Made by a program: the position numbers and the translations under genes. From Dehalococcoidia bacterium (GTDB taxonomy: Bacteria; Chloroflexota; Dehalococcoidia; Lucifugimonadales; UBA3495), in the NCBI GenBank assembly GCA_965232845.1, contig OZ247428.1:1565543-1629542 (forward strand): a stretch of DNA of 64,000 bases. Direction: 5' to 3'. The notes under the pieces were generated by a model. That model did not search any database, was not told where the DNA came from, and saw only the letters and a program-made list of their open reading frames with translations. Shown in pieces: positions 12,207-63,738 of the stretch (position 1 is its first letter; each line of letters opens with the position of its first letter).

Positions 12207-12227
12207 TTTGTCGGGCTAACCGTCAGT

Positions 12228-13196: not shown

Positions 13197-13908
13197 AAAC
13201 AGCATCATTCCTATAATACCTATGAAACCCCTCGCCGACTGCAAGACGCGCCTTTCGCGCACTTTGACCGCAGAGGAAAGGGGCGACCTGGTTATAGGAA
13301 TGCTTCGCCGGGTTATCATGGCTATCAAAGGTGCCTCAATCGACGTTTTCTGGGTGGTTGGCGGAGACTGGCGAGTTCGCAACCTGACCCGCAATTTCGA
13401 CGGCCTCTGGATTGAAGACTTTGGTCGTAACCTGAACGACACGTTGGACAAGTCCTTTGACCGGGCCTCCCAGCGGGGCTATGGATCCATGTACGTGCCC
13501 GGCGACCTGCCCTTTCTTAAGGCGGCAGATATCACCAGCATGATCCGTTCCGCTGGCCAGGGCAGAAATATTGTCCTCGCACCGGCACGGCGGGACAGCG
13601 GGACCAACAGCATCCTGATTCCCCCCAAGCTCGCCTTCAAACCGGAACTGGGAAACCGAAGCTTCACCAAGCATCTCAGCCAGGCGGGGAAGCTGGGTAT
13701 TTCCGTGGCAATTTGTTACAGCGAAGGATTAGGATTTGACCTGGATATAACCGAAGACCTGGAGTTGTTCCAACAAAAAGAGCCGGGCTTTCTGGAACGC
13801 TTGACTCCCCGCAAGTCTTCGCTCGCGACAGGCGACCTACCCGCTATGCGAGATAATGGTGGCCTGACCAATTTGAGAGAACAAGATGACTTCCTCCGCA
13901 ATCGATAA
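13183..13908 (+). CDS. cofC: 2-phospho-L-lactate (or PEP) guanylyltransferase CofC
   Basis: 241 aa with IIPIIPMKPLADCKTRLS...PGDLPFL motifs. Overlaps the cofD stop by 14 nt. Confidence 0.75.
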   Translation: MMVDENSIIPIIPMKPLADCKTRLSRTLTAEERGDLVIGMLRRVIMAIKGASIDVFWVVGGDWRVRNLTRNFDGLWIEDFGRNLNDTLDKSFDRASQRGYGSMYVPGDLPFLKAADITSMIRSAGQGRNIVLAPARRDSGTNSILIPPKLAFKPELGNRSFTKHLSQAGKLGISVAICYSEGLGFDLDITEDLELFQQKEPGFLERLTPRKSSLATGDLPAMRDNGGLTNLREQDDFLRNR

Positions 13909-13965
13909 CTCCCTTCTTGATCTCTTCCAATCGCCCCGCTCGGCTCTAACGGAGGCTTACCTCGT

Positions 13966-14919
13966 ATGAAACTGGGCTTTCTGTTGCCCACCCGCGGCTT
14001 GCTGCTGTCCGAAGATCGGCCACAAAGCGCCGACCGCATAATCGATCTGGCCTGCCGGGCTGAGGAGGCCGGCCTGGATTCCGTCTGGGTAGGCGACAGC
14101 CTTACGGCAAAGCCTCGCCTAGAGCCCCTGACCGCCCTCGCCGCAGTGGCTGCCCGCACCAGTCGCGTACGACTGGGAACGTCGGTGCTGCTAATGGCCC
14201 TGCGCCATCCGGTGCTCCTGGCCCAAACCCTGGGAACGGTCGACCTGATTTCCAAGGGTAGGCTGATGATAGCTGCCGGTGTAGGCGGGGCCTTCAACGA
14301 AGATCAGCAGGCGGAATGGAGGAGTGCCGGGGTATCGGTTAGGCGCCGGGCCAGCCGAATGGAGGAAATGGTCCAGATAATAAAGGGCCTGGGCCGGGGA
14401 GAAACCATAAACTTCAGCGGCAGGCACTTCGACCTCGAGTCTGTCACGGTCAAGCCCTGGCCCGTTCAGGAGGGAGGCGTACCCATTTACCTGGCATGCC
14501 ACTGGCGAGCGCAGGCACGGGATGCCCAGATAAAGCGCGCTGCCAGGCTCGCTGACGGCCTGATTTCCATTTCAGACACTCCTGAAGAACACGCCAGGCT
14601 TATTGAGGCAGTAAGGGCCGAAGCTGTCGAACTGGGACGTGAACCCGATTCCCTGGACACAGTAATGTATATGACCGTTAACATGGATTCGGATCTCGCC
14701 CGGGCGGAAGCAGAGTCCGAACGGTACCTGCTGGGGTATTACGGCGCCGAAATCTGGGGCGACCGTTGGGGTCCCTTCGGCGGACCCGAGCGGGTCAAGG
14801 AACGGATAGCAGAATATATGGAAGCCGGGGCGGGAACGGTTGTGGTGCGGTTCGCTTCATTCGAACCGGAACAGCAAATGAGCACGTTCCTGGAAAGAGT
14901 GGCGCCCGAGTTTATATAG
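13966..14919 (+). CDS. LLM-class (luciferase-like) F420-dependent oxidoreductase
   Basis: 317 aa with MKLGFLLPTRG...DSVWVGDSL...RLGTSVLL... Sits directly after the cof genes. Confidence 0.75.
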   Translation: MKLGFLLPTRGLLLSEDRPQSADRIIDLACRAEEAGLDSVWVGDSLTAKPRLEPLTALAAVAARTSRVRLGTSVLLMALRHPVLLAQTLGTVDLISKGRLMIAAGVGGAFNEDQQAEWRSAGVSVRRRASRMEEMVQIIKGLGRGETINFSGRHFDLESVTVKPWPVQEGGVPIYLACHWRAQARDAQIKRAARLADGLISISDTPEEHARLIEAVRAEAVELGREPDSLDTVMYMTVNMDSDLARAEAESERYLLGYYGAEIWGDRWGPFGGPERVKERIAEYMEAGAGTVVVRFASFEPEQQMSTFLERVAPEFI

Positions 14920-18598: not shown

Positions 18599-19814
18599 TT
18601 ATCCCTTCAGAACCCCATGCCGCTCGAATATTCGCGCCAACTCAGCTACACCTTCCGACACCGTTTCAGCGGTAGGATGGCCGAAGCACAGACGGGCACA
18701 GTTAACGCCACGGCCCTCGGGGGAGAACATGCTGCCGTTATAGTAGCCAACGCCTTCGTTAAATGACTGTTCCTGCAATGCTGCCAGGTCTATGTCCTCG
18801 GGCATTTCCAGCCAGACGTAGAGGCCGCCTTCGGGCTTGCTCCACTGGGCCGCATCGCCGAAATTTTCTCCCAGCGCAGCCAGCATGGCGTCCCGTTTAA
18901 CCCGCAGTGAGTCGTTCTGCTCCTGGATATGGGAGTACATGCTGTCCTTGGCGAATTCCTGGACCGCCAACGCCGCAAACTGGTTGACCCCGCCGCCGCC
19001 CTTGAAACTCATGGCCCGCTGAATGACCTCCTGGGGGGCAACCATGTAGCCAAGACGTACGCCGGGAGCAACTATCTTGGAGAAAGAACCCACGTACAGC
19101 ACCCGTCCCGAGTCGTCCATGGAATGCATGGAGGTCACGTCCTCGCCCTCGAACCTGAGATCGACATAGCAGTCGTCCTCCAGGACCGGGACACCGTATT
19201 TCCCAGTTATTTCCAAAGTCTTAACCCTGCGTTCCAGGCTCATCGTCCAGCCCAGAGGGTTTTGAAACACTGGAATCGTGTAAAGGAACTTCACCTTCTT
19301 GCCCTCGGAAGCCACTGCCGCCAGGGTGCTTTCCAGATCTTCTGGAATTATTCCCTCGTCATCGCACCTGACGCTGCGAACATCGGCGCCAAACCGACGC
19401 ATGGCGCGGAGGGTTCCCAGGTAAACGTACTCTTCGGTAAGCAGCACGTCCCCGGGATCGGTAAGGGCGGCGATCGGTAAGGGCGGCAATCAGCATTGAT
19501 ATGGCCTCGCCGGAGCCTGAGGTCAGGACAATGTCGTCGACACCCACATTCATGTTGCGGTCACGGGCCAGCTTCTCCGCCACCCACTCCCGCAGGGACG
19601 GCAAGCCAGCCGATACGGGGTAAAGCGCCAGGTCCTTTCCTTCCCGTTCCAGCGCCACCTTCAAAGAGTCGGCCAATCCCTCCAGCGGCAGGGTTTCAGG
19701 GTCTGGATAGGCGACGGCAAAGTCATACTTGGCATGCCGATTCTCGCCTCGCACAACGGGCACGGATAACTGGGAATACAAACTGTTGTAGTTGAATGGG
19801 CTTGAGGTTGCCAT
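18599..19814 (-). pseudogene. class I/II PLP-dependent aminotransferase, frameshifted by a 16-bp tandem duplication
   Basis: ORF-track pieces 19359..19979 (N-terminal part from MATSSPFNYN..., ATG 19814 with AGGAGG Shine-Dalgarno) and 18599..19489 (C-terminal part with the SFSK PLP-lysine motif). Deleting one copy of the duplication restores ...GEAISMLIAALTDPGDVLLTEEYVYLG... in a single frame. Confidence 0.8.
19456..19487. repeat. perfect tandem duplication, 2 x 16 bp (GATCGGTAAGGGCGGC)
   Basis: Read directly as cccgg GATCGGTAAGGGCGGC GATCGGTAAGGGCGGC aatcag. It lies at the junction of the two aminotransferase ORF fragments. Confidence 0.95.
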
Positions 19815-19896
19815 TAGGGTCGCCTCCTTTATTGCGCTGGCATTGGGCAAGCGGTGCTGGTAACCAAATATCGCTCTTAAGGTTGCCGGGAAGTGG

Positions 19897-21684
19897 CTAT
19901 TCGGTAATCCGCAACGCCAGGTCCCGCAATTGCGAGTCATCCACCGGCGACGGCGCCCCGAACAAAAGGTCGGTTCCACTTTGGGTCTTTGGAAAGGCGA
20001 TTACGTCCCGTATGGAGTCCGCACCTGCCAGGATAGTGACCAAACGGTCTATGCCGGGAGCTATCCCTCCGTGGGGAGGCGCCCCGTATTCAAAAGCTTC
20101 AAGGATGTGGCCGAATCGCTCCTCCACCTGTTCCCTGCTATAGCCCAGTACGGCAAAGATCTTCTCCTGGAGTTCTCGGCGGTGGATTCGGATGCTGCCA
20201 CTGGCCAGTTCGGAACCGTTGCATACCAGGTCATAAGCCTTCGACTCGATGCCGCCCAGTTCCGGCCCGTCCAGCAGGTCTTCCTTGCCGTCGGCCGGTG
20301 AAGTGAATGGATGGTGAGAGGAATCCCACCTGTTATTGGCCTCGTCCCAGTCGAAGAGAGGGAATCCGGTAACAAATGCAAATGACAGGATGTCCTCGTC
20401 AATCAGCGCCAGCCTTTCGCCGAAATAGTTGCGCATGGAACTGAGCCACAGGTTGGCCCGGCTGGCAGACCCGGCCATCAACACTATCAGATCTCCCCCA
20501 GCAGCGCCCATTCGCTCGGCCAGGCGGCGGGACCATTCCACCGGCATTCTCAACCCTGGGGAAAGCAGAAAATTGTCTTCAGCCAAGTCCGACGGTGATC
20601 CTTCTCCCTGTAGGCGAACATGGCTCATGCCGGCTGCACCAAATTCCTTGGCCGCTTCTTCAAGCCGCCGCATGTCGGACCCGGTGTAGTGGCCCTGTCC
20701 CGGAGCGACGAACCCTTTGACTATGCCGCCCTGCTCGACTGTATTGAGGAATACCCTGAATTCAGTTTCTCCGGCCAGGTCGGTTACATCCGTCATTTCC
20801 AGGCCGAAACGCAGGTCAGGTTTGTCGCTGCCGTAGCGGGCCATCACCTCGTCGTAGGGCAAGCGAGGGAAGGGCTTTATGAGCTTCTTACCCGGGGTCA
20901 ACTTCTCGACCATTCCAGTGTAGAGTTCCTCGGTCAGACGGAGCACGTCTTCCTGGTCGACAAAGCTCATTTCCAGGTCTAGCTGGGTGAATTCGGGCTG
21001 GCGGTCGGCTCTCAGGTCTTCATCCCGGAAGCAGCGGGCAATCTGAAAGTACTTTTCCACTCCCGACACCATTAGCAGTTGCTTCAACTGCTGGGGTGAC
21101 TGGGGCAAGGCGTAAAAGTTGCCCTTTTGCATACGGCTCGGCACCAGGTAATCCCTGGCGCCTTCGGGGGTGCTCTTTATCAGGATGGGAGTCTCAATTT
21201 CGAGAAACCCACGTTCGTCGAGAAAGTCACGGATATACTTGACCACCTGGTGCCGCAAAATCAGATTCCGTTGCATCTGGGGCCGGCGCAAGTCCAGGTA
21301 GCGGTATCGGAGGCGCAAACCCTCATCCGCCTTAACGTCATCTTCTATGTAGAAGGGCGGCGTGAGGGAGGAATTCAGGACCGTCACCTCATCGGCCATA
21401 ACTTCCACCATCCCCGTAGGGAGCGACGGATTTTCCGACTCGGGTGGACGGCGGGTAACAACTCCCTTGACTTCTATAACCCACTCCGACCGAAGCTGCT
21501 CAGCCACCCGGTAAGCCTCGGGGGACAACTCAGGGCTGAACACTACCTGGACGATTCCGGACCTGTCTCTCAGGTCAACAAAAATGACGCCGCCGTGGTC
21601 GCGGCGACTGTCAACCCAACCTGCCAGGGTATGCCGGCAGTCAATCTGGTTTTCCGTAAGGTCGTTGCAACTTGCGCTCTTCAG
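19897..21684 (-). CDS. aspS: aspartate--tRNA ligase, probably initiating at a non-canonical CTG
   Basis: The ORF track starts at GTG 21543. The conserved N-terminal OB-fold sequence ([48 protein letters not shown]) is encoded in frame upstream with no ATG, GTG or TTG. CTG at 21684 is preceded by GGAGGA 5 nt upstream and gives a typical ~595 aa product. Confidence 0.85.
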
Positions 21685-23928: not shown

Positions 23929-25482
23929 GTGCAGAATATATTCACTTTACCTACTTGCCAACCGTTTAGATCAAAGAAATACGTCAAATGCCACCGAATG
24001 CTTCTTGCTTCATTGATGGTGATTTTATTCGGGATTCTGTTGACCGGGTGTTCCTTCCTGCAACCCGACTTTTCGGCAGGACAGGAGACTGATTCCGAGA
24101 CCAACCAGGGTTCCTCCGAACCCCAAACCGTGGCGATACAAGATTCTCCTGCGCCTTCATCTCAAACTAAAGCCGGCAATGGGAACACAGCATCCGGCGC
24201 TGGGAATGAAACGTCGCCGGTTGCGGCCATTAGTCAGCAGGATGGTGTGGCGAAATCCGAAGCGACAACAGATACAGAAGTCGTCACCGAGACCGCGGAC
24301 ACTATTGGGGCGGGCCCCCTGAGCGACATCCTCGGGGACAACGTGCCCGAAGTGTCTTCCCCGGGGGAAGAAACGGGCGGGAGCAGCCGACCCCAGCTGT
24401 CCGGCTTGACTCCTCTGGAGATTGTGGCGGCTCAAGACGAGGTGCTTGGAGACATCTACGACAGCACCCTGCCATCCGTGGTCCTGATCCGAGTGTCCAG
24501 GAGCCTGGGGTCACTGGCTGACAGGCCCAGGATTCCCGATATACCCGGCATCCCAGACGACTTCTTTGAACGTTCCGGCGGAACGGGTTTTGTATGGGAC
24601 GACGAGGGGCACATCGTAACCAACCATCACGTGGTGACGCAGGCCGACCGGGTAATTGTTGTGCTGCCTAATCGCGTGGAGATGGAAGCGGAATTCATCG
24701 GAAGTGACCCAGACTCGGACCTGGCGGTGCTGAAGGTGTCCGACCCGGACGGGTTGCTCACGCCCGTTACACTGGGGGACAGTGACCAGGTCTATATGGG
24801 GCAGTTGGCCGTCGCAATGGGAAACCCCTTTGGACAGCAATTCAGCATTACGACGGGCATTATCAGCGGCATCGGGCGCACCATTCGCAGCGGGCACAGC
24901 CCCTTCTCCATTCCTGAGGTGCTGCAGACCGACGCTCCCATAAACCCGGGCAACTCGGGGGGGCCACTACTGGACCGCAACGGCCATGTCATCGGAGTAA
25001 ATACCCAGATAATCAGCCGCACCGGCGTGAATTCGGGGATCGGGTTCGCCGTTCCCATCAACATAGCCAAACAGGTGATTCCGTCACTCATGGAGGGCGG
25101 CGAGTACCAGTATTCCTGGCTGGGTATCAGCGGCACCAGCATTTTGCCGGATGTCGCCGAAGCTATGGAGCTGCCCCGTTCCACCCAGGGCGCCCTGGTC
25201 ATCGAGGTTGTGCCCGACGGGCCCGCCGCCAAGTCAGGACTGCTGGGCAGCGACGAAATATTCGAAATGGAGGGGCTGGAATTACCCGTAGGAGGCGATG
25301 TAATTGTAGCCATTGACGGCGCTCCGGTGGAAACTATCGACGACGTGATAGCCTTCCTGGTTGGAAAGACCGAACCCGACCAGACGGTTACGATGGACAT
25401 CATACGGGATGGCGAACAGCAGCAGATTACGGTAACGCTGGGCACTCGCCCTGATCTCTCAAACCCTGCGCCGGAAAACTGA
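23929..25482 (+). CDS. HtrA/DegP-family serine protease with PDZ domain; probable lipoprotein
   Basis: GTGFVWDDEGHIVTNHHVV (His), DLAVLKV (Asp) and GNSGGPLLD (Ser), plus a C-terminal PDZ domain. Has an LLTGC lipobox and a long Ser/Thr/Glu-rich linker. AAGGAGA Shine-Dalgarno before GTG 23929. Confidence 0.9.
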   Translation: MQNIFTLPTCQPFRSKKYVKCHRMLLASLMVILFGILLTGCSFLQPDFSAGQETDSETNQGSSEPQTVAIQDSPAPSSQTKAGNGNTASGAGNETSPVAAISQQDGVAKSEATTDTEVVTETADTIGAGPLSDILGDNVPEVSSPGEETGGSSRPQLSGLTPLEIVAAQDEVLGDIYDSTLPSVVLIRVSRSLGSLADRPRIPDIPGIPDDFFERSGGTGFVWDDEGHIVTNHHVVTQADRVIVVLPNRVEMEAEFIGSDPDSDLAVLKVSDPDGLLTPVTLGDSDQVYMGQLAVAMGNPFGQQFSITTGIISGIGRTIRSGHSPFSIPEVLQTDAPINPGNSGGPLLDRNGHVIGVNTQIISRTGVNSGIGFAVPINIAKQVIPSLMEGGEYQYSWLGISGTSILPDVAEAMELPRSTQGALVIEVVPDGPAAKSGLLGSDEIFEMEGLELPVGGDVIVAIDGAPVETIDDVIAFLVGKTEPDQTVTMDIIRDGEQQQITVTLGTRPDLSNPAPEN

Positions 25483-25736: not shown

Positions 25737-26213
25737 ATGGACTTGCCAGCACACACTTTTCTGGACCTCAAAGGGATACCATATCGGAGGCTTGAGTTTT
25801 CCTCCGAAACCGATAAAGGGGCCGCCAACGTGGCCCGGGCGCTCGGTTTCGAGGAAGGGCAGATGGTCAAGACCCTGATATTTCGAACCGGTGAAGGGGA
25901 ATTGGCCCTGGTCATGCTGGGTGGCGACCGTCATACAGTCTCTGGCCACTTGAAACGGGCCCTGGGTTCCAGAAATATCAGCCTCGCCGACCCTGACAAG
26001 GTCCTGGAAATCACCGGCTATGCCGTAGGGTCAATACCACCATTTCACTGGCAGCCGACGGGGTTTCGTTCCCTTTTGGACGCTGCTTTGACGGAATATG
26101 AGGAATTGGGTGTTGGATCGGGAGTCTGGGGAAATGAAATCATAATTTCGCCGACCGACTTGATTTGCGCTTCCGGAGCTGAAGTAGTAAATCTGACCAG
26201 GAGAGACCTATGA
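25737..26213 (+). CDS. YbaK/EbsC-type aminoacyl-tRNA deacylase
   Basis: ORF track 25683..26213; ATG 25737 (MDLPAHTFLDLKGIPYRRLEF...) is preferred. The motif KTLIFRTGEGELALVMLGGD...GYAVGSIPPF is typical of the YbaK domain. Confidence 0.75.
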   Translation: MDLPAHTFLDLKGIPYRRLEFSSETDKGAANVARALGFEEGQMVKTLIFRTGEGELALVMLGGDRHTVSGHLKRALGSRNISLADPDKVLEITGYAVGSIPPFHWQPTGFRSLLDAALTEYEELGVGSGVWGNEIIISPTDLICASGAEVVNLTRRDL

Positions 26214-26617
26214 AGTATTGGATTGCCATGGCATTGCTGGTATTGGCGTTGACTGCCTGCTCTCAGTCCGATGCTACAGTAACTACCCCCTCCGGCCTTC
26301 ACTACGAAGTGCTCGCGTCGGGAGACGGGAGTGCCGCATCACCGGGAGACACGGCGGTAGTCCATTACACCGGTTGGCTCGTGGACGACACCAAGTTCGA
26401 CAGTTCAGTGGACCGTGGTGAGCCCTTCCAGTTCGTCATTGGTCAAGGCAACGTTATCCAGGGTTGGGACGAAGCGGTCGCCCTGATGAAGGTTGGCGAC
26501 AAGTGGAGGCTGACTATCCCGCCGGACCTCGCCTACGGTAACCGCAGCATCGGGGGAGGCTTGATTCCTGCGGGCTCAACCCTCATATTCGAGGTGGAGT
26601 TGCTGGATCTGGAGTGA
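26210..26617 (+). CDS. FKBP-type peptidyl-prolyl cis-trans isomerase, lipoprotein
   Basis: 135 aa with an LALTAC lipobox, VHYTGWLVDDTKFDSS...FVIGQGNVIQGWDEA...PPDLAYG. ATGA overlap with the upstream gene. Confidence 0.9.
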   Translation: MKYWIAMALLVLALTACSQSDATVTTPSGLHYEVLASGDGSAASPGDTAVVHYTGWLVDDTKFDSSVDRGEPFQFVIGQGNVIQGWDEAVALMKVGDKWRLTIPPDLAYGNRSIGGGLIPAGSTLIFEVELLDLE

Positions 26618-33791: not shown

Positions 33792-34886
33792 ATGAACCTG
33801 CAAACAACTCTCTACCAAGCTCATCTCGATCTGGGCGCCCGCATGGTGCCGTTCGGCGGCTGGGACATGCCAGTGCAGTACGCCGGCATAATCAACGAGG
33901 TCAAGGCGGTGCGTACCGCTGCCGGAATCTTTGACGTCTCCCACATGGGTCGTTTATACATTTCGGGCCCGCAGTCGGGCTCTTTTCTGGACCGCATGCT
34001 CACCGGCTCCGCTACCAACCTTCGGGTGGGGCGTGCCCGCTACTGCCTCATCTGCAATGAGGAGGGTGGCGTAATCGATGACACCATCTTCTACCGGCTC
34101 TCCGAAGACAGCTATTTGTTGATACCAAATGCCGGCAACCGGCCCGCGGTCGTGGACTGGTTTAATGCAAGGATCGAATCCGAATTTGCCGGCGGCGTAG
34201 AAATGGAAGACCGCACCGCCGACTCCGGTCTCATCGCGCTGCAGGGACCCAATGCAGCCACCCTCCTGGATGCCATCTGCCAACTTGAGGATAATGCCCC
34301 GCCTTCCTCTTTGAGGTTCTTTACCTGGGGAGAAGGAAGTTTAGGAAACAGCAAAGTATTCGTGGGCCGCACGGGATACACCGGCGAAGACGGCTTCGAG
34401 CTTTCGATGTTAAGCGAGGACGCAGCTCCAGTGTGGAATGCTTTGATGGCAGCAGGGGCTCTTCCTTGCGGCCTGGGAGCAAGAGACGTGCTGCGCCTGG
34501 AGGCCGGCCTGCCCTTACACGGCCACGAAATTGACCCGGAAACCTCGCCCATTGAGGCGGGTTTGGACCGTTTCGTTCGACGCGAAGGCAATTACATTGG
34601 TCAGCCAGTCTTGGCCGCACAGCGTGAGAGGGGAACAGAAAGGAAGCTGGTAGGCCTCACCCTGCCCGGCCGGAGCGCGCCCCGCGCCGACTACAATATC
34701 CTTTCCGGTGGGCAGGAAGTTGGCCGGATTACCAGTGGCAGCTTTTCGCCAACTCTTGACACCAGCATTGCCATGGGCTACGTTTTGGCGGGCCATTCCG
34801 AACCCGGAACTTCGCTGGAAGTGGATATCAGGGGAAGGATCGCCGCCGCTGAAGTGGTAACGCTACCCTTCTACAATCGAAGTTAA
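33792..34886 (+). CDS. gcvT: glycine cleavage system aminomethyltransferase GcvT
   Basis: 364 aa with LYQAHLDLGARMVPFGGWDMPVQY...FDVSHMG... Confidence 0.95.
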   Translation: MNLQTTLYQAHLDLGARMVPFGGWDMPVQYAGIINEVKAVRTAAGIFDVSHMGRLYISGPQSGSFLDRMLTGSATNLRVGRARYCLICNEEGGVIDDTIFYRLSEDSYLLIPNAGNRPAVVDWFNARIESEFAGGVEMEDRTADSGLIALQGPNAATLLDAICQLEDNAPPSSLRFFTWGEGSLGNSKVFVGRTGYTGEDGFELSMLSEDAAPVWNALMAAGALPCGLGARDVLRLEAGLPLHGHEIDPETSPIEAGLDRFVRREGNYIGQPVLAAQRERGTERKLVGLTLPGRSAPRADYNILSGGQEVGRITSGSFSPTLDTSIAMGYVLAGHSEPGTSLEVDIRGRIAAAEVVTLPFYNRS

Positions 34887-34917
34887 TACATACCAAAGAC
34901 CAGGAGGTCCGGACAGA

Positions 34918-35307
34918 ATGAGTCCCGACGACCGCAAATATACCCGAGAGCATGAGTGGGCCAAGCTGGAAGACGCCGAAACCAAGCTGGTGGCCGTAGG
35001 CATCACACACTTTGCTCAAGATGAACTGGGTGACATAGTCTATTTTGATCTTCCCCAATCCGGAGCCACCGTTTCCTATATGGAAAAGATGGGAGAGGTT
35101 GAATCGGTTAAGGCTGTTTCAGATCTGTTCTCTCCGGTTACCGGCAAAATTGAAGCTATCAACGACGGGCTTATCGACCACCCCGAACTGGTCAACGACG
35201 ACCCTTTCGAATCCGGCTGGATTATGCGTGTGGCACTGGAAAACCTCAGCGAGTTGGATAGCTTGATGACCGCCGCCGAATATGACGAGTACATTGGCGC
35301 TAACTAA
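34918..35307 (+). CDS. gcvH: glycine cleavage system protein H
   Basis: 129 aa with YTREHEWA... and the lipoyl-lysine motif VESVKAVSDLFSP. Confidence 0.95.
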   Translation: MSPDDRKYTREHEWAKLEDAETKLVAVGITHFAQDELGDIVYFDLPQSGATVSYMEKMGEVESVKAVSDLFSPVTGKIEAINDGLIDHPELVNDDPFESGWIMRVALENLSELDSLMTAAEYDEYIGAN

Positions 35308-35451
35308 GCAGTAAAGGTTAGGCCGGTGCAGGGTGGCGGTGCGGACAAGCCTCAGCACGAATTTGAAAACAGGTTCAGGTCGGGGAATAGCGACAAATTC
35401 ATCGCTCACCGAATTTCTCAACCCATCAATAATTATTCAGGAGTTGCGCCC

Positions 35452-36804
35452 TTGACCACCGCCCACTTTCAGTCGCATTACATCCCGAACACCGAGCAGG
35501 AACAGGCCGAGATGCTGGCTACGCTCGGCCTAACCTCTATAGATGAACTCTTCCACGACATCCCTGACGAGTTTCGCAACCCTCCCCTGAACCTTCCCGC
35601 CCCGTTGTCGGAACTGGAAATCCAGAAGGAACTGGGAGAATTGGCCGCAAGGAACAGGGCCCTGGGAAGCGGACCGTCCTTCCTGGGAGCGGGTTCCTAC
35701 CATCACTTCATTCCCGCCATCGTAAAGGCCCTGATGACGCGCGGAGAGTTTCTTACCGCTTACACCCCCTACCAGCCCGAAGTAAGCCAGGGCACTCTGC
35801 AGGTAATCTACGAATTCCAGACCTTGATCAGCAACCTCTACGGGATGGAGGTAGCCAACGCCGGTATGTACGACGGGGCAACCAGCCTGGCCGAGGGTGT
35901 GCTGATGGCTTGCCGTGTCACTCGACGAAGCCGCGTGGCCGTCCTGGACACCGTCTCCCCCAACTACCTTCAGGTGATCCGCACCTATTGCCAGGCCCAG
36001 GGCATTAGCCTCGAAGTGGTTCGACATTGGGAGCCGGAAGTTGGCGACGACACGGCCTGCCTTGTGGTTCAGTACCCCAATTTTTACGGCGCGGTGGAAG
36101 ACCTGAAGGAATTCGCCGAAATGGCCCATGGGCACGGGGCTTTGCTGGTGGTTTCGGCAGACCCCATGATTTGCGGAATGTTCAATCCGCCGGGCCACTA
36201 TAGCGCCGATATCGTTACCGGAGAGGGACAACCCCTTGGCATTCCGGTCAGTTACGGGGGGCCCTACCTGGGTCTCTTCACCTGCAAGGAGCAGTACATC
36301 AGGCAGATGCCCAGCCGATTGGTCGGCCGCACTTTGGACAGCCAGGGGCGCAACGGTTTTGTGCTGACTCTCCAGACCAGGGAACAGCACATCCGGCGTG
36401 AACGGGCTACCAGCAACATCTGCACCAACGAGGCTCTCTACGCCCTGGCTGCCACCATTTACCTGGCCGCCGTGGGAAAACAGGGGCTTCGACAGATGTC
36501 CGAGTTGTGCTACCACAAGGCCCACTATGCCGCTTCCCGGATCGAGGAACTGTCCGGGTACTCCCTGCCTTTCAAACGTGGGCCCTTCTTCCAGGAATTC
36601 GTAGCCCAGTGTCCCGCGCCACCCCAGGAGATTAACCGGAAGCTGTTGGAGCGGAATATCCTCGGTGGACTGGACATCAGCGTCCCGCCCTACAGCGACC
36701 CAATGCCTCCGGACGTTGACAAGGGGCTATTGGTCTGCGTAACCGAAATGAACAGCAAGGATGAAATAGACGCTCTGGTAGCAGGGCTGGCGGAGTTTAG
36801 CTAA
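35452..36804 (+). CDS. gcvPA: glycine dehydrogenase (aminomethyl-transferring) subunit 1, GcvPA
   Basis: ORF track 35326..36804. TTG 35452 (AGGAG 8 nt upstream) gives a typical ~450 aa protein beginning LTTAHFQSHYIPNTEQEQAEML. Confidence 0.92.
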   Translation: MTTAHFQSHYIPNTEQEQAEMLATLGLTSIDELFHDIPDEFRNPPLNLPAPLSELEIQKELGELAARNRALGSGPSFLGAGSYHHFIPAIVKALMTRGEFLTAYTPYQPEVSQGTLQVIYEFQTLISNLYGMEVANAGMYDGATSLAEGVLMACRVTRRSRVAVLDTVSPNYLQVIRTYCQAQGISLEVVRHWEPEVGDDTACLVVQYPNFYGAVEDLKEFAEMAHGHGALLVVSADPMICGMFNPPGHYSADIVTGEGQPLGIPVSYGGPYLGLFTCKEQYIRQMPSRLVGRTLDSQGRNGFVLTLQTREQHIRRERATSNICTNEALYALAATIYLAAVGKQGLRQMSELCYHKAHYAASRIEELSGYSLPFKRGPFFQEFVAQCPAPPQEINRKLLERNILGGLDISVPPYSDPMPPDVDKGLLVCVTEMNSKDEIDALVAGLAEFS

Positions 36805-38264
36805 TGCACAATGGTGGATCTCGCGATACTTCACAGTTGCTAATGGAACGCAGCATGTCCGGCCGGGTTGGTGTGGTAACGCCCGCCCTGGACGTGCCAG
36901 CACAACCGTTGCCCGATGCATCGATGCTGCGTGAAGACCTGGCCCTGCCCGAAGTATCTGAACCGGGAGTAGTCCAATACTTTACTGCCCTCAGCCAATT
37001 GAATTTCTCAATTGACACCCAGTTCTATCCCTTGGGCAGTTGCACCATGAAGTACAACCCGAAAATCAATGACGAAGTGGCTTTCCTTCCCGGCTTTGCA
37101 TCCATCCATCCCATGCAGCCGGTGGATCAGAGCCAGGGCGCCTTGGACCTGCTGTATCGGCTTCAGGGGTTCCTCGGCGAGATCACCGGCATGTCCGGTG
37201 TCAGCCTGGCTACTCTGGCCGGCGCCCATGGCGAGTTGGCCGGCGTCTTGATGATGCGCGCCTACCACCACGCCCAGGGCGATATGGGCCGCACCAAGAT
37301 GGCCATCCCGGACAGCGCTCACGGTACTAATCCCGCTTCCGCGGCCATGGCCGGGTTCGATGTTGTCACCCTGGCCTCGGACCAGGACGGGAACGTGGAC
37401 CTGGAGGCGCTGCACGAACTGGTCGGGCCCGACCTGGCCGGGGTAATGATCACGCTGCCCAGCACCCTTGGCCTCTTCGACCAGAATATCGTAGAAGTCT
37501 GTCGCATAGTTCACGAGGCGGGTGGACTGGTTTACGGCGACGGGGCGAACATGAATGCTCTGGTGGGCCGGACCAAGCTCGGAGAACTGGGCTTCGACGT
37601 TATCCACCTGAATTTGCACAAGACCTTCAGCACCCCCCACGGCGGCGGCGGTCCAGGGGCTGGACCGGTATGCTGCGTCCCTGCCCTGGAGCCCTATCTG
37701 GCCGCGCCGGTGGTCGCCAACGGCAGCGGGGAGTTCTCCCTGACCACTCCGGAGCAGAGCATCGGCAAGATCAGCGGATTTCACGGTAACTTCGGAGTTC
37801 TAGTACGGGCCTACACCTATATCCGCACTCTGGGGGACGCCGGCATCAAGTCAATCAGCGGCAACGCCGTATTGAACGCCAACTACCTGCTGCAGGCCCT
37901 GCGCGACATTTACTATCTGCCCTATGACCGTACCTGCATGCACGAGGTAGTCTTCTCCGCCGACTGGCAGCGGACGAGGGGAGTTAGTGGACTGGACGTT
38001 GCCAAACGGCTGCTGGACTATGGCTTTCATGCCCCCACCATGTACTTCCCGCTTATCGTCCACGAGGCCCTGATGATCGAACCCACCGAGTCGGAGAACC
38101 GGGACACTCTGGATGCATTCATCCAGGCCCTGCGAGACATTAATCGGGAATCCGAAGAGGACCCGGACATGGTCCACCACGCACCGCACACAACCCCAGT
38201 GTCTCGGCTCGACGAGGCGGGAGCGGCGCGGCATCCGAACCTGCGGTGGCGGCCGTCTGACTGA
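36804..38264 (+). CDS. gcvPB: glycine dehydrogenase subunit 2, GcvPB
   Basis: 486 aa with the PLP-lysine region NLHKTFSTPHGGGGPG. TAATG overlap with gcvPA. Confidence 0.95.
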   Translation: MHNGGSRDTSQLLMERSMSGRVGVVTPALDVPAQPLPDASMLREDLALPEVSEPGVVQYFTALSQLNFSIDTQFYPLGSCTMKYNPKINDEVAFLPGFASIHPMQPVDQSQGALDLLYRLQGFLGEITGMSGVSLATLAGAHGELAGVLMMRAYHHAQGDMGRTKMAIPDSAHGTNPASAAMAGFDVVTLASDQDGNVDLEALHELVGPDLAGVMITLPSTLGLFDQNIVEVCRIVHEAGGLVYGDGANMNALVGRTKLGELGFDVIHLNLHKTFSTPHGGGGPGAGPVCCVPALEPYLAAPVVANGSGEFSLTTPEQSIGKISGFHGNFGVLVRAYTYIRTLGDAGIKSISGNAVLNANYLLQALRDIYYLPYDRTCMHEVVFSADWQRTRGVSGLDVAKRLLDYGFHAPTMYFPLIVHEALMIEPTESENRDTLDAFIQALRDINRESEEDPDMVHHAPHTTPVSRLDEAGAARHPNLRWRPSD

Positions 38265-43340: not shown

Positions 43341-43901
43341 CTAGACCCTCTCACCCTTAAATGCCCACAGCCAGTCCTGATCCCGGGCCGGGCCCGTAAC
43401 CCACCCGTCCATGGCCTGCTGGCGTTCCGCCCCAATGTCCACACCCAGGCCATCGGCCAGCCGGTTCATGAAATTGAACAGGCAGGTAATCCCCACCACT
43501 GAAAGTATCTGCTCATCAGGCAATCCCAGTTCCCTCAGGGTAATTACATCCGCCTCCCGCATTTCCGTCGGTTCTTTGGTCAGCTTCACCGCAAAGTCCA
43601 GCATGCCACGGGTCTGCGGGTCGAGGTCGGCAGTCGTATAGTCGTGCAGGACATGACTGGCGTATTCCGGGTCGTCGGAATGTTGACGGAGGAACCCCCC
43701 GTGGGAAGATGCTCAATAGCGGCAGCGGTTGATCACTGACACGGCTACGGCAATGGATTCCTCCTGAATCCGGGTCAGCTCCGAGGCGCCGAAACTGACG
43801 GCCTGGTTAAGGTTGCGGACCGCCTCCATCATCCTGGGGTTAATGGACATGGAGCTAATAATGCCGGGCATGCCCACGTCTTCCTGTCTTATCCAGGTCA
43901 T
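43341..43901 (-). CDS. AhpD-like / carboxymuconolactone decarboxylase (CMD) family peroxidase-related selenoprotein, CxxU motif (in-frame TGA at 43715-43713)
   Basis: ORF-track pieces 43713..43901 and 43341..43604 are in one frame; I verified this codon by codon. Readthrough gives ...IAVAVSVINRCRY-U-ASSHGGFLRQH...MLDFAVKLTKEP... The family motif is N-x-C-x-Y-C-xxx-H, so the TGA replaces the second Cys. The total of 186 codons is typical for the family. AAGGAG Shine-Dalgarno at the start. Confidence 0.8.
43686..43702 (-). promoter_or_regulatory. candidate bacterial SECIS hairpin for the AhpD-like gene
   Basis: On the coding strand, ACGGGG-GGUUC-CUCCGU forms a 6-bp stem including one G-U pair, with a GGU-containing apical loop. 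It starts 10 nt after the UGA. Confidence 0.45.
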
Positions 43902-43987
43902 GGTCTGCTCCTTCTTCTCCCGTCATCTGGTCCAGTAAATGACGGGTAGTTCTTTTTGGGTAATTCTCCAACAGTGGCCAATTCAGG

Positions 43988-44374
43988 CTATTCGCTCACC
44001 GAGGCCGGGCGCGCCCCCTCCAGGTAATGAGTATGTTCCGCAGAATAGGGATCAAGGGCAGGAAAGAACACCAGCAGGTGAGCCGTACCTTCGCCGGTAA
44101 CTCTAAAGGAGTGCTCAGCCCCGGGGGGAATGACCACGGTGTGGTTAGGGCCGACAGTCCGGGTTTCCCCATCCATGCTGACTTCCAAAGTTCCTTCCAT
44201 TATGATGATCAGCTCGTCAATAGTGTGAGTGTGCAACGGAGCGCCGGCTCCAGGCTCGGCGGTATTGATGCTAAAGGTGCTGGTTACCCCCTGTTCGTGG
44301 CCGGCCACGTCCCACTTTCGGTAGCCAGGCCGCCAGGGCACTTCCGGAGCATGGGAATGGTCAATTATGGGCAT
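43988..44374 (-). CDS. cupin-domain protein
   Basis: 128 aa with GAGAPLHTHTIDELIIIMEGTLEV...PPGAEHSF (two cupin motifs). GGAGGA Shine-Dalgarno upstream. It lies 86 nt upstream of the AhpD-like gene on the same strand. Confidence 0.8.
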   Translation of the reverse strand: MPIIDHSHAPEVPWRPGYRKWDVAGHEQGVTSTFSINTAEPGAGAPLHTHTIDELIIIMEGTLEVSMDGETRTVGPNHTVVIPPGAEHSFRVTGEGTAHLLVFFPALDPYSAEHTHYLEGARPASVSE

Positions 44375-44620
44375 GCTGTCCTCCAGGGCGTTCGGTCAGG
44401 TTGGCTGCGGGCAGCACCTGCCGGCGATTTGCGCCCCATTGTACCCCATATTCCCCTAACTGCCAGACCAGAAAAACAGGGGCCAGGAACAAGCGCGCCA
44501 CCTAAGGTGCCCCTGCCGGAACTAACTTGGCGAACACCGTTGAATATTTGATTTCACGTACGGGCGCCCGGCGGTAGCCGTGCTATACTTGGTCAATCAC
44601 CGGCATTTCAGGAGGAACTT

Positions 44621-45139
44621 ATGACCACGCCAGCGGCACAACCGGATAGTGACCGGATTTCCCGGTCTTTTACCATCCAGGGCGACGCGATGACCCTGGA
44701 AGGCATGAAAAAGCAGGCGGAAGCCCGCGGTTTCACGATTATGTGCGACGAAGGGCCCCCTATGGGCGACAACACCGCGCCTTCTCCCATGACCTATTTC
44801 GCGGTCGCCATCCTGTTTTGAGAAATGACCCAGCTTGAGCGGTACGCTCAGATGATGAAAGTGGACCTGGGGCAGGTAAAAGCTAATGTCGGCTTTTCGG
44901 TTTCTTCCGAAGGTTCGGTGCTTCGACAAACGGTTCAGGCCAAGGCGGACAAGATCAACATTCACTATGACGTAGTTTCTAATGACCCGCCGGAACGGGT
45001 GGCTGGCCTCATGCGGAACGCCCGCAACGGTTGCTACGCCCGCCAGTCCTTCGGGCGCCCTGAGTTGTTCGAAGACACTATCAACTTGAATGGCGAGCCC
45101 TTTGACATGGCTGACTACCCGGCTCCAGGCGACAACTAA
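44621..45139 (+). CDS. OsmC/Ohr-family peroxiredoxin-like selenoprotein (in-frame TGA at 44819-44821)
   Basis: ORF-track pieces 44621..44821 and 44825..45139 are in the same frame (offset 204 nt). Readthrough gives ...NTAPSPMTYFAVAILF-U-EMTQLERYA... and later RNARNGCYARQSF. The TGA aligns with the first conserved OsmC Cys (E. coli ...IGAAHAAC-FSMALS), and the second Cys motif is retained. AGGAGG Shine-Dalgarno 6 nt before the ATG. Confidence 0.8.
44835..44851 (+). promoter_or_regulatory. candidate bacterial SECIS hairpin for the OsmC-like gene
   Basis: UUGAGC-GGUAC-GCUCAG, a 5-7 bp stem with GGU in the apical loop, beginning 13-14 nt after the UGA. Confidence 0.45.
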
Positions 45140-61083: not shown

Positions 61084-62283
61084 TTACCGTGCCAGGCCGT
61101 AGGCGACAGCCTTAAGGTTGGCATCCTCCGATTCGTTTAGGGTCGCGGCCACGCTGGCAATCAACTTGCCGCAAGCCGTGTCACCCCAGAACCAGCGGTG
61201 CAGAGCCTCCTCGTCTGCCCCCTTCTGCTGCTCCATCCTGGCTTCGTAATAGAAGGCTTTGAGGTCGTCGGCGCAGTACCGAATGAACTGGGCCCGGGAT
61301 ACCCCTTCCGGCCGCTCCGACATATCGGCATCGGCATCCCCTTCGGCGCAACCCTCAAGAAATCTGATCACGCCCCTGAAGCGTCGCTGGGGAACGCCAC
61401 ACAGACCCACTGCGGTTCTGCCGCCGTTATTGTCCAGCCAGCGTTCGTAAAAGGCCCTCAACGCTGTAACTTCGTCCGCGGCGCTTCGGGTAGCTGGCTC
61501 AACCTTGGTATCGACCTGCGACGCCTGAGGCATTATCGATGGAGCTGAATCATCGGGGAAATCTTCCAACACCGGCCCTGTAGCGGCCTTGAGAAGGTCG
61601 AATGCCGCCTCCAAAACCTGGTGTTGGTACTCCGCATCGTTGGGCCTTCCCAGGGCAAACCCGAAGAAGAAAGGTACGAACAGGGCCCTTGGCGGCTTTA
61701 CCTTCTCGGCATGCTCACGGACCATTGCGATGGTGGTTGTAGCTACTCCATGTTCTTCAATAACCCTGGACAGCACACTCACGGTGTGGGTGCAAAGGGG
61801 TCAAGTAGGGGTCAGGAGCGCCACGTCAACTCCCTCTTCCTTCAGCCACCGAGCCACCTCTGGTCCGGTTTCGTCAATTAGCTTGCTGGCATCACGCAGC
61901 GCGCCCATAAAGGAGTAGTAGTTAGCAGACAATTCACCAATCTTTCCTTGCTCTACCAACTCCCTAAGCCGGTCCACCGGAAATGTGACGTTCAAGTCCC
62001 GATAGATGCCGGTATGGTCGAAGCCTATGGAAAAGTGGCTTTGCACCACGTCCGCCGGGTTGGAGTCGCTGGGAATAACCCGGTAGGTGTACTCGCCGCC
62101 GGGATCATCGCGCGTGAATGGCTTGTCGCCGCGCAGGTGCAGGCCGGCCGAGGTAACCAGGGCAACCTTGCACTGGGACAATGGCTTAGACAATCCCACC
62201 CAGGGTGTGGATTCATGCTCCAGGCAAGGAAAAAACTCCAGTGTCCTGCGCTGTACTTCGCTCAGCGTTTCCAGTCTGGGCAT
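61084..62283 (-). CDS. GrdB/PrdB-family (glycine/sarcosine/betaine/D-proline reductase selenoprotein B-like) selenoprotein, UxxC motif (in-frame TGA at 61803-61801)
   Basis: ORF-track pieces 61801..62283 and 61084..61782 are in one frame. My readthrough gives ...FPVDRLRELVEQGKIGELSANYYSFMG...EEGVDVALLTPT-U-PLCTHTVSVLSRVIEEHGVATTTI... This parallels GrdB ...LRELEKEG.IG...AVILTST-U-GTC...IER.GIP. (from memory). GAGGAGG Shine-Dalgarno before ATG 62283. 399 codons in total. Confidence 0.75.
61764..61800 (-). promoter_or_regulatory. candidate bacterial SECIS hairpin for the GrdB-like gene
   Basis: On the coding strand directly after the UGA: CCCCUUUGCACCCACAC-CGUGA-GUGUGCUGUCCAGGG. The core stem CACAC/GUGUG (61774-61788) has a GU-containing loop, and an imperfect lower stem CCC.../...GGG extends it. 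Confidence 0.4.
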
Positions 62284-62403: not shown

Positions 62404-63498
62404 TTAGTTAAATACGATGGCGCCCCGGCCAACTTCTCCCTGGTCCATGTCGCCATAGGCCTCATTTATCTGGTCCAGAGAATAGTGACGGACCACCAGA
62501 TCGTCGAGGTTCAGCCGTCCCGACAGGTAAAGGTCAACCATGGTAGGCATATCCGTGCGACCCCGGGCCGAACCGTAGTAGGTACCCCGCAGGGTCTTCT
62601 CGTTTCGCACCAGGTCCACGGCATTGATGGGAGCCTCGGCGCCCATCGGGGCAATTCCCACCACCGTAACTGTCCCGCTCTTGGCACACATATCGTAGGA
62701 GGCTTTGACTGTTTCTGCCGAGCCGAACACCTCGAAGGTGTAGTCGGCGCCACGGCCACCTGTGAGTTCCTTGACCTGGGCAACAGGGTCCCGGTCTGCG
62801 GCATTTACCGAGTGGGTCGCGCCGAACTTCATCGCAAATTCAAGCTGGCTCTCGCGGATGTCCACCGCAATGATCTGCGAGGCGTTAAGTAGCTTGGCTC
62901 CCATAATTACGTTGAGTCCCACCCCGCCGCAGCCGACCACCGCGACGGTGCTGCCGGGCTGCACTTTGGCGCTGAACATGGTCGCCCCAACGCCCGTGGG
63001 AACACAACAGCCAATCATCGCCGCTTTGTCCATGGGAATGCCGGAGTTCGTGGGTATGCAGCCGGTTTCCGGTACCACCGCATACTCGGCAAAGCACGCT
63101 ACCTTGCCCATGTGGTGAATATCCCTGTCGCCCTTGTGGAGGCGGGTAGTGCCGTCCAGCATAAAGGGGCCCGTGGCCATGTGCAGATCGCACAGGTTGG
63201 AGTTTCCTTCCAGGCAGGACTTGCACCTGCCACACGCCGGGACAAAGGACAGAATTACCTGGTCGCCAGGCTTGGTCAGGGTAACGCCGGGCCCCACCTT
63301 CTCCACGGTTCCCGCTCCCTCGTGACCCAGCACGGCAGGCAGGGCGATGTTGGCATCACCATGCATAAAGTGCCGGTCGCTGCGGCAAACACCCGCTGCG
63401 CCAATCTTCACCAGCGCCTCACCGGCCTTGGGTTCGTCCAAGTCTACATCCTCAACCACCAAAGGTTGACCATATTCATACAAAACGGCAGCCTTCAA
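62404..63498 (-). CDS. zinc-dependent alcohol dehydrogenase (class III / medium-chain dehydrogenase family)
   Basis: ORF track 62404..63582. TTG 63498 (GGAGGG 6 nt upstream) gives LKAAVLYEYGQPLVVEDV... Has GVCRSDRH, GHEGAGTV, the structural-zinc CGRCKSCLEGNSNLC and the Rossmann motif VVGCGGVGL. Confidence 0.88.
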   Translation of the reverse strand: MKAAVLYEYGQPLVVEDVDLDEPKAGEALVKIGAAGVCRSDRHFMHGDANIALPAVLGHEGAGTVEKVGPGVTLTKPGDQVILSFVPACGRCKSCLEGNSNLCDLHMATGPFMLDGTTRLHKGDRDIHHMGKVACFAEYAVVPETGCIPTNSGIPMDKAAMIGCCVPTGVGATMFSAKVQPGSTVAVVGCGGVGLNVIMGAKLLNASQIIAVDIRESQLEFAMKFGATHSVNAADRDPVAQVKELTGGRGADYTFEVFGSAETVKASYDMCAKSGTVTVVGIAPMGAEAPINAVDLVRNEKTLRGTYYGSARGRTDMPTMVDLYLSGRLNLDDLVVRHYSLDQINEAYGDMDQGEVGRGAIVFN

Positions 63499-63738
63499 TT
63501 GCGGCCCTCCTGAATCTATTTGGTGTTTATCATCCGCATAAGCCTGCTGTATGTCAACCGCTGGAAATCTCCGGAGGCTCACACAGGCTGTTGGATTAAG
63601 GGTGTATCCGGACCCGTCGCATTAACCGATCGCTTGCCCTAATGTGGTAACTGGCAAAATGATGTAATATTCTTTCTGTCGAAAACACCTTGCAACTAGC
63701 CCCGTTGCGCTCGACCTACCCTCCGGAAGGAGTTCTGG

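Follow-up and report, generated by a model that had tools for sequence, protein, structure and literature searches.

A divergent pair of AhpD-like and OsmC-like selenoprotein genes in a SAR202-type Dehalococcoidia bacterium: catalogued families, probable separate promoters and a possible redox relay

Selenoproteins of the AhpD-like, OsmC-like and PrdB types, which carry the motifs CxxU, UxxT and UxxC, respectively (U being selenocysteine, Sec), were reported in 2005 from the Sargasso Sea metagenome (PMC1088965), counted again in the Global Ocean Sampling (GOS) data (PMC2398784), and tabulated in reviews from 2022 (PMC9312934) and 2026 (PMC13188914), the latter of which assigns the model TIGR01926 to the AhpD-like CxxU family. 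Chloroflexi were scored as Sec users in 2006 (PMC1794560), and BSepDB (PMC13326102, May 2026) places two Dehalococcoidia metagenome-assembled genomes (MAGs), with 49 and 46 selenoprotein genes, in its top ten of bacteria by richness in selenoproteins. A biochemical link between the AhpD and OsmC folds is available from Corynebacterium glutamicum, where AhpD-type proteins, together with Lpd/SucB/NADH, are the preferred regenerators of OsmC and Ohr (PMC10460364; reviewed in PMC8945050). The subject of this report is a locus from a Dehalococcoidia bacterium (assembly GCA_965232845.1, contig OZ247428.1, positions 1,565,543 to 1,629,542; this stretch of 64,000 nucleotides is referred to as the window, and all positions are given within it), in which an AhpD-like and an OsmC-like selenoprotein gene lie on either side of a cupin gene on diverging strands, while a third, PrdB-like selenoprotein gene is located at a distance. 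Each of the three genes is an ordinary member of a catalogued family, and the lineage is one already known as selenoprotein-rich; the pairing of AhpD(Sec) with OsmC(Sec) is the sole modestly new observation. We consider with good confidence that the locus is best explained as a catalogued, Sec-decoded AhpD-like and OsmC-like pair read from separate promoters, for which a functional relay can be proposed.

The AhpD-like gene (43341-43901, minus strand) has 186 codons, including one in-frame TGA that corresponds to Sec63 (43713-43715, in the context ...VINRCRY-U-ASSHGG...). In profile scoring, which was performed throughout with Cys in the place of the TGA codon, its translation reaches 126.7 bits against TIGR01926, 'peroxidase-related enzyme' (cutoff 81.8), and 40.9 bits against the AhpD core model TIGR00778 (cutoff 27.8), and also matches PF02627 (CMD). 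The AhpD core is defined by the motif E-X11-C-X2-C-X3-H. In the present protein it reads E48-X11-C60-R-Y-U63-A-S-S-H67, the second Cys of CxxC having given way to Sec (CxxU). The best relatives of known structure are Protein Data Bank (PDB) entries 3c1l, 2pfx and 2oyo, and in these alignments, which span the UGA, the Sec site falls on a Cys. The gene thus shares with the described AhpD-like selenoprotein family (TIGR01926, COG2128) the CxxU motif, the E-X11-C-X2-C/U-X3-H core, the downstream hairpin and the mixed Sec/Cys membership, and it presents no substantive difference from that family other than its setting, downstream of a cupin gene and opposite an OsmC-like selenoprotein gene.

It is of note that the closest full-length relatives of the AhpD-like protein (P0086-P0116, including P0103, encoded at L075 2501-3064), which are 47-67% identical to it, carry Gly, Ala, Ser, Glu, Thr or Trp at the Sec/Cys site and retain just the first Cys of CxxC; their genes occur in another context, adjoining amidase and thiamine pyrophosphate (TPP)-enzyme genes. 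Translation under an alternative code was considered as a source of the Gly and Trp residues and was rejected for P0103, where the codon is a real GGG.

The OsmC-like gene (44621-45139, plus strand) has 172 codons with one in-frame TGA, corresponding to Sec67 (44819-44821, ...FAVAILF-U-EMTQLERY...). It scores 144.1 bits against the curated, seleno-specific NCBIfam model NF041052, 'OsmC-related (seleno)protein' (cutoff 95), and 48.1 bits against PF02566, OsmC (cutoff 27.5). Sec67 sits at the first Cys of the OsmC fold, which is the peroxidatic Cys in OsmC/Ohr, and both redox residues, U67 (in U67-E-M-T, the UxxT motif) and C137, show no variation across the family alignment and correspond to the two Cys of PDB 3cje, whose alignment spans the UGA; the second conserved Cys of the family lies approximately 70 residues after Sec. 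These are also the traits of the described OsmC-like selenoprotein family (NF041052, PF02566/COG1765), namely UxxT, Sec at the first Cys and a retained second Cys, and no substantive difference from it was found. In both proteins, therefore, Sec occupies a redox-active Cys position, the second Cys of CxxC in the AhpD-like and the first Cys in the OsmC-like protein, as the homologues and PDB structures bear out and as an earlier reading of the sequence (hereafter the first-pass annotation) had maintained.

The relationship of the OsmC-like protein to characterized peroxidases is more distant. The catalytic Glu of canonical OsmC/Ohr, located approximately 10 residues before the peroxidatic Cys in 'P-E-x-L', is absent, the corresponding segment being P-M-T-Y here and P-L-A-Y in relatives; the catalytic Arg could only be placed by structural alignment. 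Matches to true OsmC/Ohr structures are marginal (E-values 0.04-0.5), and the nearest solved structure is the uncharacterised 3cje. On these profile and motif comparisons the gene is filed with the OsmC-related selenoproteins, and not with canonical OsmC or Ohr; the description 'peroxidase-type' is no more than plausible for it, and its branch does without the canonical active-site Glu.

That UGA encodes Sec in these genes is indicated in the first place by conservation of the codon. A survey of 185,579 species genomes, with one genome per species, yielded 68 OsmC-like loci, nearly all in Dehalococcoidia, SAR202 or Chloroflexota MAGs, with outliers in Tectomicrobia, Binatia and others; six closer contigs were added to these. 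TGA is present in all 72 loci that can be aligned across the site, making this a family that is almost always in Sec form and is concentrated in Dehalococcoidia/SAR202 MAGs, and the 66 residues 5' of the TGA are conserved as protein when the codon is read through. Cys is found at this position in P0082, in the Lysobacterales locus L074 and in 3cje. For the AhpD-like gene, TGA is kept in 25 of 25 syntenic relatives, and in 80 further metagenome loci the site reads TGA 61 times and TGC or TGT 22 times. The ratio of nonsynonymous to synonymous substitution rates (dN/dS), which was calculated for the AhpD-like and OsmC-like genes, is 0.02-0.1 for the former and 0.0-0.1 for the latter on both sides of the UGA, with dS at ~1 or higher in each case and synonymous sites at or near saturation. 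Both halves of both genes are under strong purifying selection.

These data bear on the possibility that the TGAs are nonsense mutations or assembly errors and the genes pseudogenes. The window does contain one clearly disrupted gene, encoding a class I/II aminotransferase (18599-19979), which is split over two frames and carries a 16-nt perfect tandem duplication (two copies of GCCGCCCTTACCGATC, 19456-19487, minus strand); this gene is either a pseudogene or an assembly artefact. For the Sec genes, on the other hand, dozens of independent assemblies agree in having TGA at this codon, and both halves show purifying selection despite saturated synonymous sites; the TGA falls exactly at the position of the catalytic Cys and is followed by conserved hairpins. 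Decay or misassembly is thus ruled out by TGA conservation and dN/dS, and we attach practically no probability to it.

Individual assemblies depart from the general pattern. In the long-read MAG contig CBDBHA010000002.1 (L065, 2960-3010), a C-run just past the hairpin contains one C too many, which shifts the frame of the OsmC-like gene and is probably a homopolymer assembly error. One AhpD-like gene (L092, 21-554) has TAA at the Sec position with an intact hairpin, which is probably the result of recent inactivation or of a sequencing error. Another (L113, 341-763), on a single 1.5-kb contig, has TGA at both Cys codons of CxxC (N-R-U-H-Y-U) together with the usual hairpin, and could represent either a U-x-x-U diselenide centre or a sequencing error.

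Each of the three Sec UGAs is followed, within the coding sequence, by a short hairpin resembling a selenocysteine insertion sequence (SECIS). These are ACGGGGG-GUU-CCUCCGU in the AhpD-like gene (43686-43702, minus strand; stem start 14 nt from the U of UGA), UUGAGCG-GUA-CGCUCAG in the OsmC-like gene (44835-44851, plus strand; 17 nt), and the candidate CACAC-CGUGA-GUGUG in the PrdB-like gene (61774-61788, minus strand; 16 nt), all with GU in the apical loop (GUU, GUA and CGUGA). Single-sequence folding downstream of the three UGAs gives z-scores of ~0, and comparative evidence is needed because stability alone is uninformative for hairpins this short. In the OsmC-like family, 94.2% of alignment cells are paired across 44 distinct sequences, as opposed to 5-44% in slid controls; three pairs show compensatory double changes, and the covariation score was reached by none of 500 shuffles. 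No variation is seen in the apex CGGUACG, not even where a change would be synonymous, Arg and Tyr always being encoded by CGG and UAC. Of 76 distinct Sec-form sequences of the AhpD-like family, 57 form all 7 pairs of the hairpin, whereas none of 22 Cys-form sequences does so; pairing extends to 87.6% of the cells and drops to 38-53% if the 3' side is shifted by 1-3 columns, and the innermost pair is seen as A-U, G-C and C-G. Support is weaker for the PrdB-like hairpin, for which five distinct sequences are available; relatives carry CACGC-GGUCA-GCGUG, where an A-U pair becomes G-C, and CACGC-AGUCU-GUGUG, with a G-U pair.

A descriptive rule was written once the three hairpins were known: the stem must have 5 bp or more and begin 12-22 nt past the T of TGA, and the loop must contain GU. 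All three candidates satisfy it, as do 29 (1.65%) of the window's 1756 TGA triplets overall, but not one of 14 genuine TGA stops. Inspection of the intergenic gaps and of all TGA triplets with a hairpin revealed no fourth selenoprotein gene in the window. Its count of three Sec codons, which the first-pass annotation had put forward, is upheld by the conserved UGAs, the Cys-containing homologues and the SECIS-type hairpins; the profile and SECIS examinations to which it had proposed to submit the candidates place the OsmC-like and AhpD-like proteins above their cutoffs and find a hairpin after every UGA.

The same annotation had argued for SECIS-directed recoding over a reassigned genetic code, UGA being an ordinary terminator in this organism, and both points stand. 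The stop codons of 48 long open reading frames (ORFs) in the window comprise 18 TAG, 16 TGA and 14 TAA, and the genes that end in TGA include those for a response regulator (1707-2513), HtrA (23929-25482) and FKBP (26210-26617). The alternative, in which UGA would be reassigned genome-wide to Trp or Gly, or in which each gene would consist of two cistrons, with a stop at UGA and a restart at the next Met, draws some support from the AUG that most OsmC-like genes have two codons past the UGA. Reassignment is nevertheless ruled out by stop-codon usage, TGA ending 16 of the 48 long ORFs at family-consistent lengths. Split cistrons are ruled out in turn by distant OsmC-like Sec genes that read U-L-L-T-Q, with no Met after the UGA; the AhpD-like gene, moreover, has no start codon directly past its UGA, and the codon lies inside both the fold and the two-residue redox centre. 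Neither version retains more than a negligible likelihood, and the hairpins with compensatory changes argue for directed recoding in all three genes.

Codon conservation, Cys homologues, selection, hairpins and the use of UGA as a stop elsewhere constitute five lines of evidence by which all three are genuine selenoprotein genes, and no counter-evidence to Sec decoding was found in the analysis. Decoding by means of a short hairpin within the coding sequence, ~14-17 nt downstream, is the usual SelB-dependent bacterial mechanism. The 64-kb window contains none of selA, selB, selC or selD; ARAGORN detected no tRNA-Sec in it, and Rfam at the gathering threshold returned two tRNAs only. The SAR202 genome bin22, which carries the same locus (L022), has two genes assigned to COG1921 (SelA) and one to COG3276 (SelB), according to the supplement of Slaby et al. 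2017 (PMC5649159).

The third gene (61084-62283, minus strand; 399 codons) is related to PrdB/GrdB and lies 16.7 kb from the stop codon of the OsmC-like gene. Its UGA (61801-61803), corresponding to Sec161 in the context ...LLTPT-U-PLCTH... (motif U-P-L-C), aligns with the first Cys of CxxC in full-length homologues (TPTCPFCTHT), and the TGA is kept in five relatives of 62-87% identity, one of which is a Nitrospinae MAG. The gene shares with PrdB/GrdB a homology to PF07355 (GRDB, 3.2e-12) that extends across the UGA, the U-x-x-C motif, which is also that of the 'PrdB' selenoproteins abundant in marine metagenomes (PMC1088965), and the occurrence of Sec/Cys pairs in the family. It differs from them in scoring 164.8 bits against TIGR04483 (PrdB), under the equivalog cutoff of 300, in having a C-terminal extension of ~170 residues past the PrdB-like region, and in its neighbours, which are a Zn-dependent alcohol dehydrogenase gene (62404-63582, adjoining) and a GNAT acetyltransferase gene, with no PrdA or GrdA/GrdE gene beside it in the window. 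A true proline or glycine reductase is probably not encoded here, because no PrdA or Grd partner genes lie near the PrdB-like gene. The alcohol dehydrogenase neighbour is kept in three relatives (L157, L158 and L159). When representative proteins were searched with the part of the protein after the UGA, the best 150 homologues were mostly fragments that start just past the UGA, and an exact-sequence look-up of the window's own fragment gave no match. A small ORF at 60134-60502 matches the PaREP1/PaREP8 family (81 bits), which Pfam describes as archaeal; such an ORF is also found beside the PrdB-like gene in L157 and L158.

Between the AhpD-like and OsmC-like selenoprotein genes lies a small single-domain cupin gene (43988-44374, minus strand; 128 aa; PF07883 Cupin_2, 1.9e-15), whose translation contains an intact His/His/Glu/His metal-binding motif (G-X5-H-X-H-X3-E-X6-G and P-X-G-X2-H). 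The coordinates previously given for the locus are exact, with the AhpD-like and cupin genes on the minus strand, the OsmC-like gene on the plus strand, and a 246-bp spacer (44375-44620) between the latter two. The first-pass annotation had seen in this spacer a shared region through which the diverging genes would be co-regulated, a claim that the comparison with relatives does not sustain. Between 103 and 435 nt long in the 16 relatives aligned, the spacer has only two conserved islands, which are separate -10 elements. One is the box TACAAT of the cupin/AhpD-like transcript (44438-44443, minus strand; ATTGTA on the plus strand), which was also picked up by a consensus promoter scan; the other is the extended -10 element TGCTATACT of the OsmC-like gene (44581-44589, plus strand), which is nearly invariant in the 16 relatives, and the same motif occurs 5' of the AhpD-like gene in relatives that have no cupin. 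Consensus promoter and terminator scans of the spacer gave sites no more numerous than in shuffled sequence. A shared operator is ruled out, in that just the two -10 boxes, and no operator, are conserved in this alignment, and no regulator gene was found adjacent to the locus. The preferred reading of the spacer is a pair of promoters placed back to back: as their conservation suggests, the OsmC-like gene would have its own extended -10 promoter, and a second one on the opposite strand would serve the cupin and AhpD-like genes. Co-regulation is possible, but the sequence offers nothing in its favour.

Co-transcription of the cupin gene with the AhpD-like gene is probable, given that no promoter is conserved in the intervening spacer among the relatives compared and that this spacer shrinks to 33 nt in one of them. 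It measures 86 nt here and 33-260 nt in relatives, and is otherwise unconserved. An 8-bp inverted repeat, CCCGUCAU...AUGACGGG (43919-43946, minus strand), was noted inside it, between the cupin stop and the AhpD-like start and just 5' of the ribosome-binding site; among the relatives, only the closest retains it.

The order AhpD-like and cupin (minus strand), then OsmC-like (plus strand), is preserved in 15 of the species-level genomes closest to the window. In more distant SAR202-type genomes the OsmC-like gene stands alone, and no neighbour is common to them. An AhpD-like gene is found within 3 kb of the OsmC-like gene in 19 of the 68 species-level genomes that carry the latter; four genomes have the two adjacent with no cupin, and the cupin, which adjoins the OsmC-like gene in most close relatives, is absent in some. 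The pairing also occurs in a different arrangement in distant soil and sediment contigs (L107, L118, L138, L153 and L154), where Sec-AhpD and Sec-OsmC genes, both with TGA, lie on the same strand, separated by ~130-330 nt in four of the five; the encoded proteins are 42-44% (AhpD-like) and 26-42% (OsmC-like) identical to those of the window. Repeated adjacency of this kind is unlikely to be due to chance, because the OsmC-like Sec family is rare, and its recurrence in distant lineages suggests a relay in which AhpD acts as the reductase of OsmC.

By analogy with C. glutamicum, the two selenoproteins could form a thiol/selenol relay, a proposal to which we give roughly an even chance. At Sec67, the OsmC-like protein would reduce an organic hydroperoxide or some comparable oxidant, and the oxidised Sec would be resolved by Cys137 as a selenenyl-sulfide; the AhpD-like C-x-x-Sec protein would then re-reduce the OsmC-like protein, and would itself be recharged by a lipoyl protein or another dithiol. 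The C. glutamicum system of AhpD (and CgAhp) with Lpd/SucB/NADH likewise combines an AhpD-fold CxxC-type oxidoreductase with an OsmC-fold two-residue peroxidase, but its proteins are Cys-based, only distantly homologous to those described here and biochemically tested, whereas here both partners contain Sec, the OsmC-like protein has no canonical Glu, and the coupling is deduced from gene adjacency alone.

Several observations weigh against such a relay. An AhpD-like gene is missing from within 3 kb in 49 of the 68 genomes with the OsmC-like Sec gene, five genomes have the cupin and OsmC-like genes with no AhpD-like gene, and no common neighbour of the OsmC-like Sec gene emerged from 45 examined genomes without an adjacent AhpD-like gene. 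At the locus itself, neither an adjacent regulator gene nor a shared operator was found. Peroxidase activity of the OsmC-like protein is only assumed, given that Met stands at the position of the catalytic Glu of OsmC/Ohr; YhfA-type proteins, which also have no catalytic Glu, are of unknown activity (PMC8945050). Finally, the residue at the Sec site is not essential to every function of the AhpD-like subfamily, because close paralogues carry Gly, Ala, Ser or Glu there.

The genes could therefore be neighbours by descent only, acting on separate substrates with separate reductants, so that their divergent order would be a clade-specific accident with no functional coupling. To this we assign a substantial probability, somewhat short of even. 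The ease with which the module falls apart (without the cupin in four genomes, without the AhpD-like gene in five, and with the OsmC-like gene alone, among variable neighbours, in 49 of 68) agrees with it, as does a spacer made up of two independent promoters with no common operator; mere descent accounts poorly for a pairing that recurs in another order, on the same strand, in contigs whose proteins are of low identity, in a Sec family limited to 68 loci among 185,579 species genomes, and for which there is biochemical precedent in the reduction of OsmC by AhpD.

A further possibility concerns the activity of the OsmC-like protein, which might be a YhfA-type redox protein and not a peroxidase, with another kind of substrate (for example an electrophile, a persulfide or a protein disulfide) and perhaps in concert with the metal-binding cupin. 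The marginal matches to true OsmC/Ohr structures, the uncharacterised 3cje as the closest solved relative, and the replacement of the active-site Glu by Met or Leu are all in keeping with this, as are the undefined activity of YhfA-type proteins (PMC8945050) and the greater persistence, in some genomes, of the cupin as a neighbour. The protein nevertheless retains the two redox residues of the OsmC fold, and the association with an AhpD-like gene fits a peroxidase with its reductase. Sec, in addition, is already deprotonated at neutral pH and depends less on the residues around it for activation. On balance we regard a YhfA-type role as rather unlikely. Comparably doubtful is the strongest form of the relay, in which the locus would represent a dedicated, undescribed all-selenoprotein pair, with the AhpD-like protein as the specific reductase of the OsmC-like protein and the cupin as a third component in SAR202, assembled independently in at least two distant lineages, in divergent order in SAR202 and on one strand in the soil and sediment contigs.

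The host is a SAR202-type Dehalococcoidia. Its closest relative is the Dehalococcoidia MAG chromosome OZ244136.1 (3.97 Mb), which has the same gene order and proteins 95-97% identical over the central genes of the locus, with 88% for a downstream ABC ATPase; other relatives include SAR202 bin22, from the sponge Aplysina aerophoba. A chimeric contig is made unlikely by an even GC content of 55-60% and by synteny with relatives over at least 8 kb. An F420 biosynthesis cluster (9635-14919) comprises two cofG/H-like radical-SAM genes, cofD and cofC, and is followed by a luciferase-like monooxygenase gene; together with the Dehalococcoidia/SAR202-type relatives, it agrees with the initial description of the host as an F420-using, Chloroflexota-like bacterium. 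Some 6 kb from the AhpD-like/OsmC-like locus there is a complete glycine cleavage operon (gcvT, gcvH, gcvP1, gcvP2; 33792-38264). One of its products, GcvH, belongs to the lipoyl proteins, from which AhpD and OsmC/Ohr are known to receive electrons; the proximity may be coincidental.

The density of Sec codons in the window had led the first-pass annotation to expect a large selenoproteome that was undescribed for this group. The size is consistent with the 46-49 selenoprotein genes listed for Dehalococcoidia MAGs in BSepDB (PMC13326102), but the claim of novelty does not hold, given that the families have been known since 2005 and that Dehalococcoidia MAGs are already present in that database. 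In the library searched, no paper was found in which 'SAR202' and 'selenoprotein' appear together. The AhpD(Sec)/OsmC(Sec) pairing is absent from the selenoprotein gene clusters listed in the 2026 review (PMC13188914), which does mention Prx-like/AhpD-like clusters. Recurrent adjacency of Sec-AhpD and Sec-OsmC genes provides a concrete hypothesis of partner and function for two families that have been known since 2005 and are still uncharacterised. It is also of interest that gene callers split these genes at the UGA, such that, as had been anticipated, standard annotation renders the three as six truncated fragments, present in public contigs as pairs of 82 and 62, 66 and 95, and 160 and 232 aa. 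The dispersal of such genes into 'hypothetical' fragments means that the redox and selenium metabolism of the abundant marine and sponge-associated Dehalococcoidia is under-counted.

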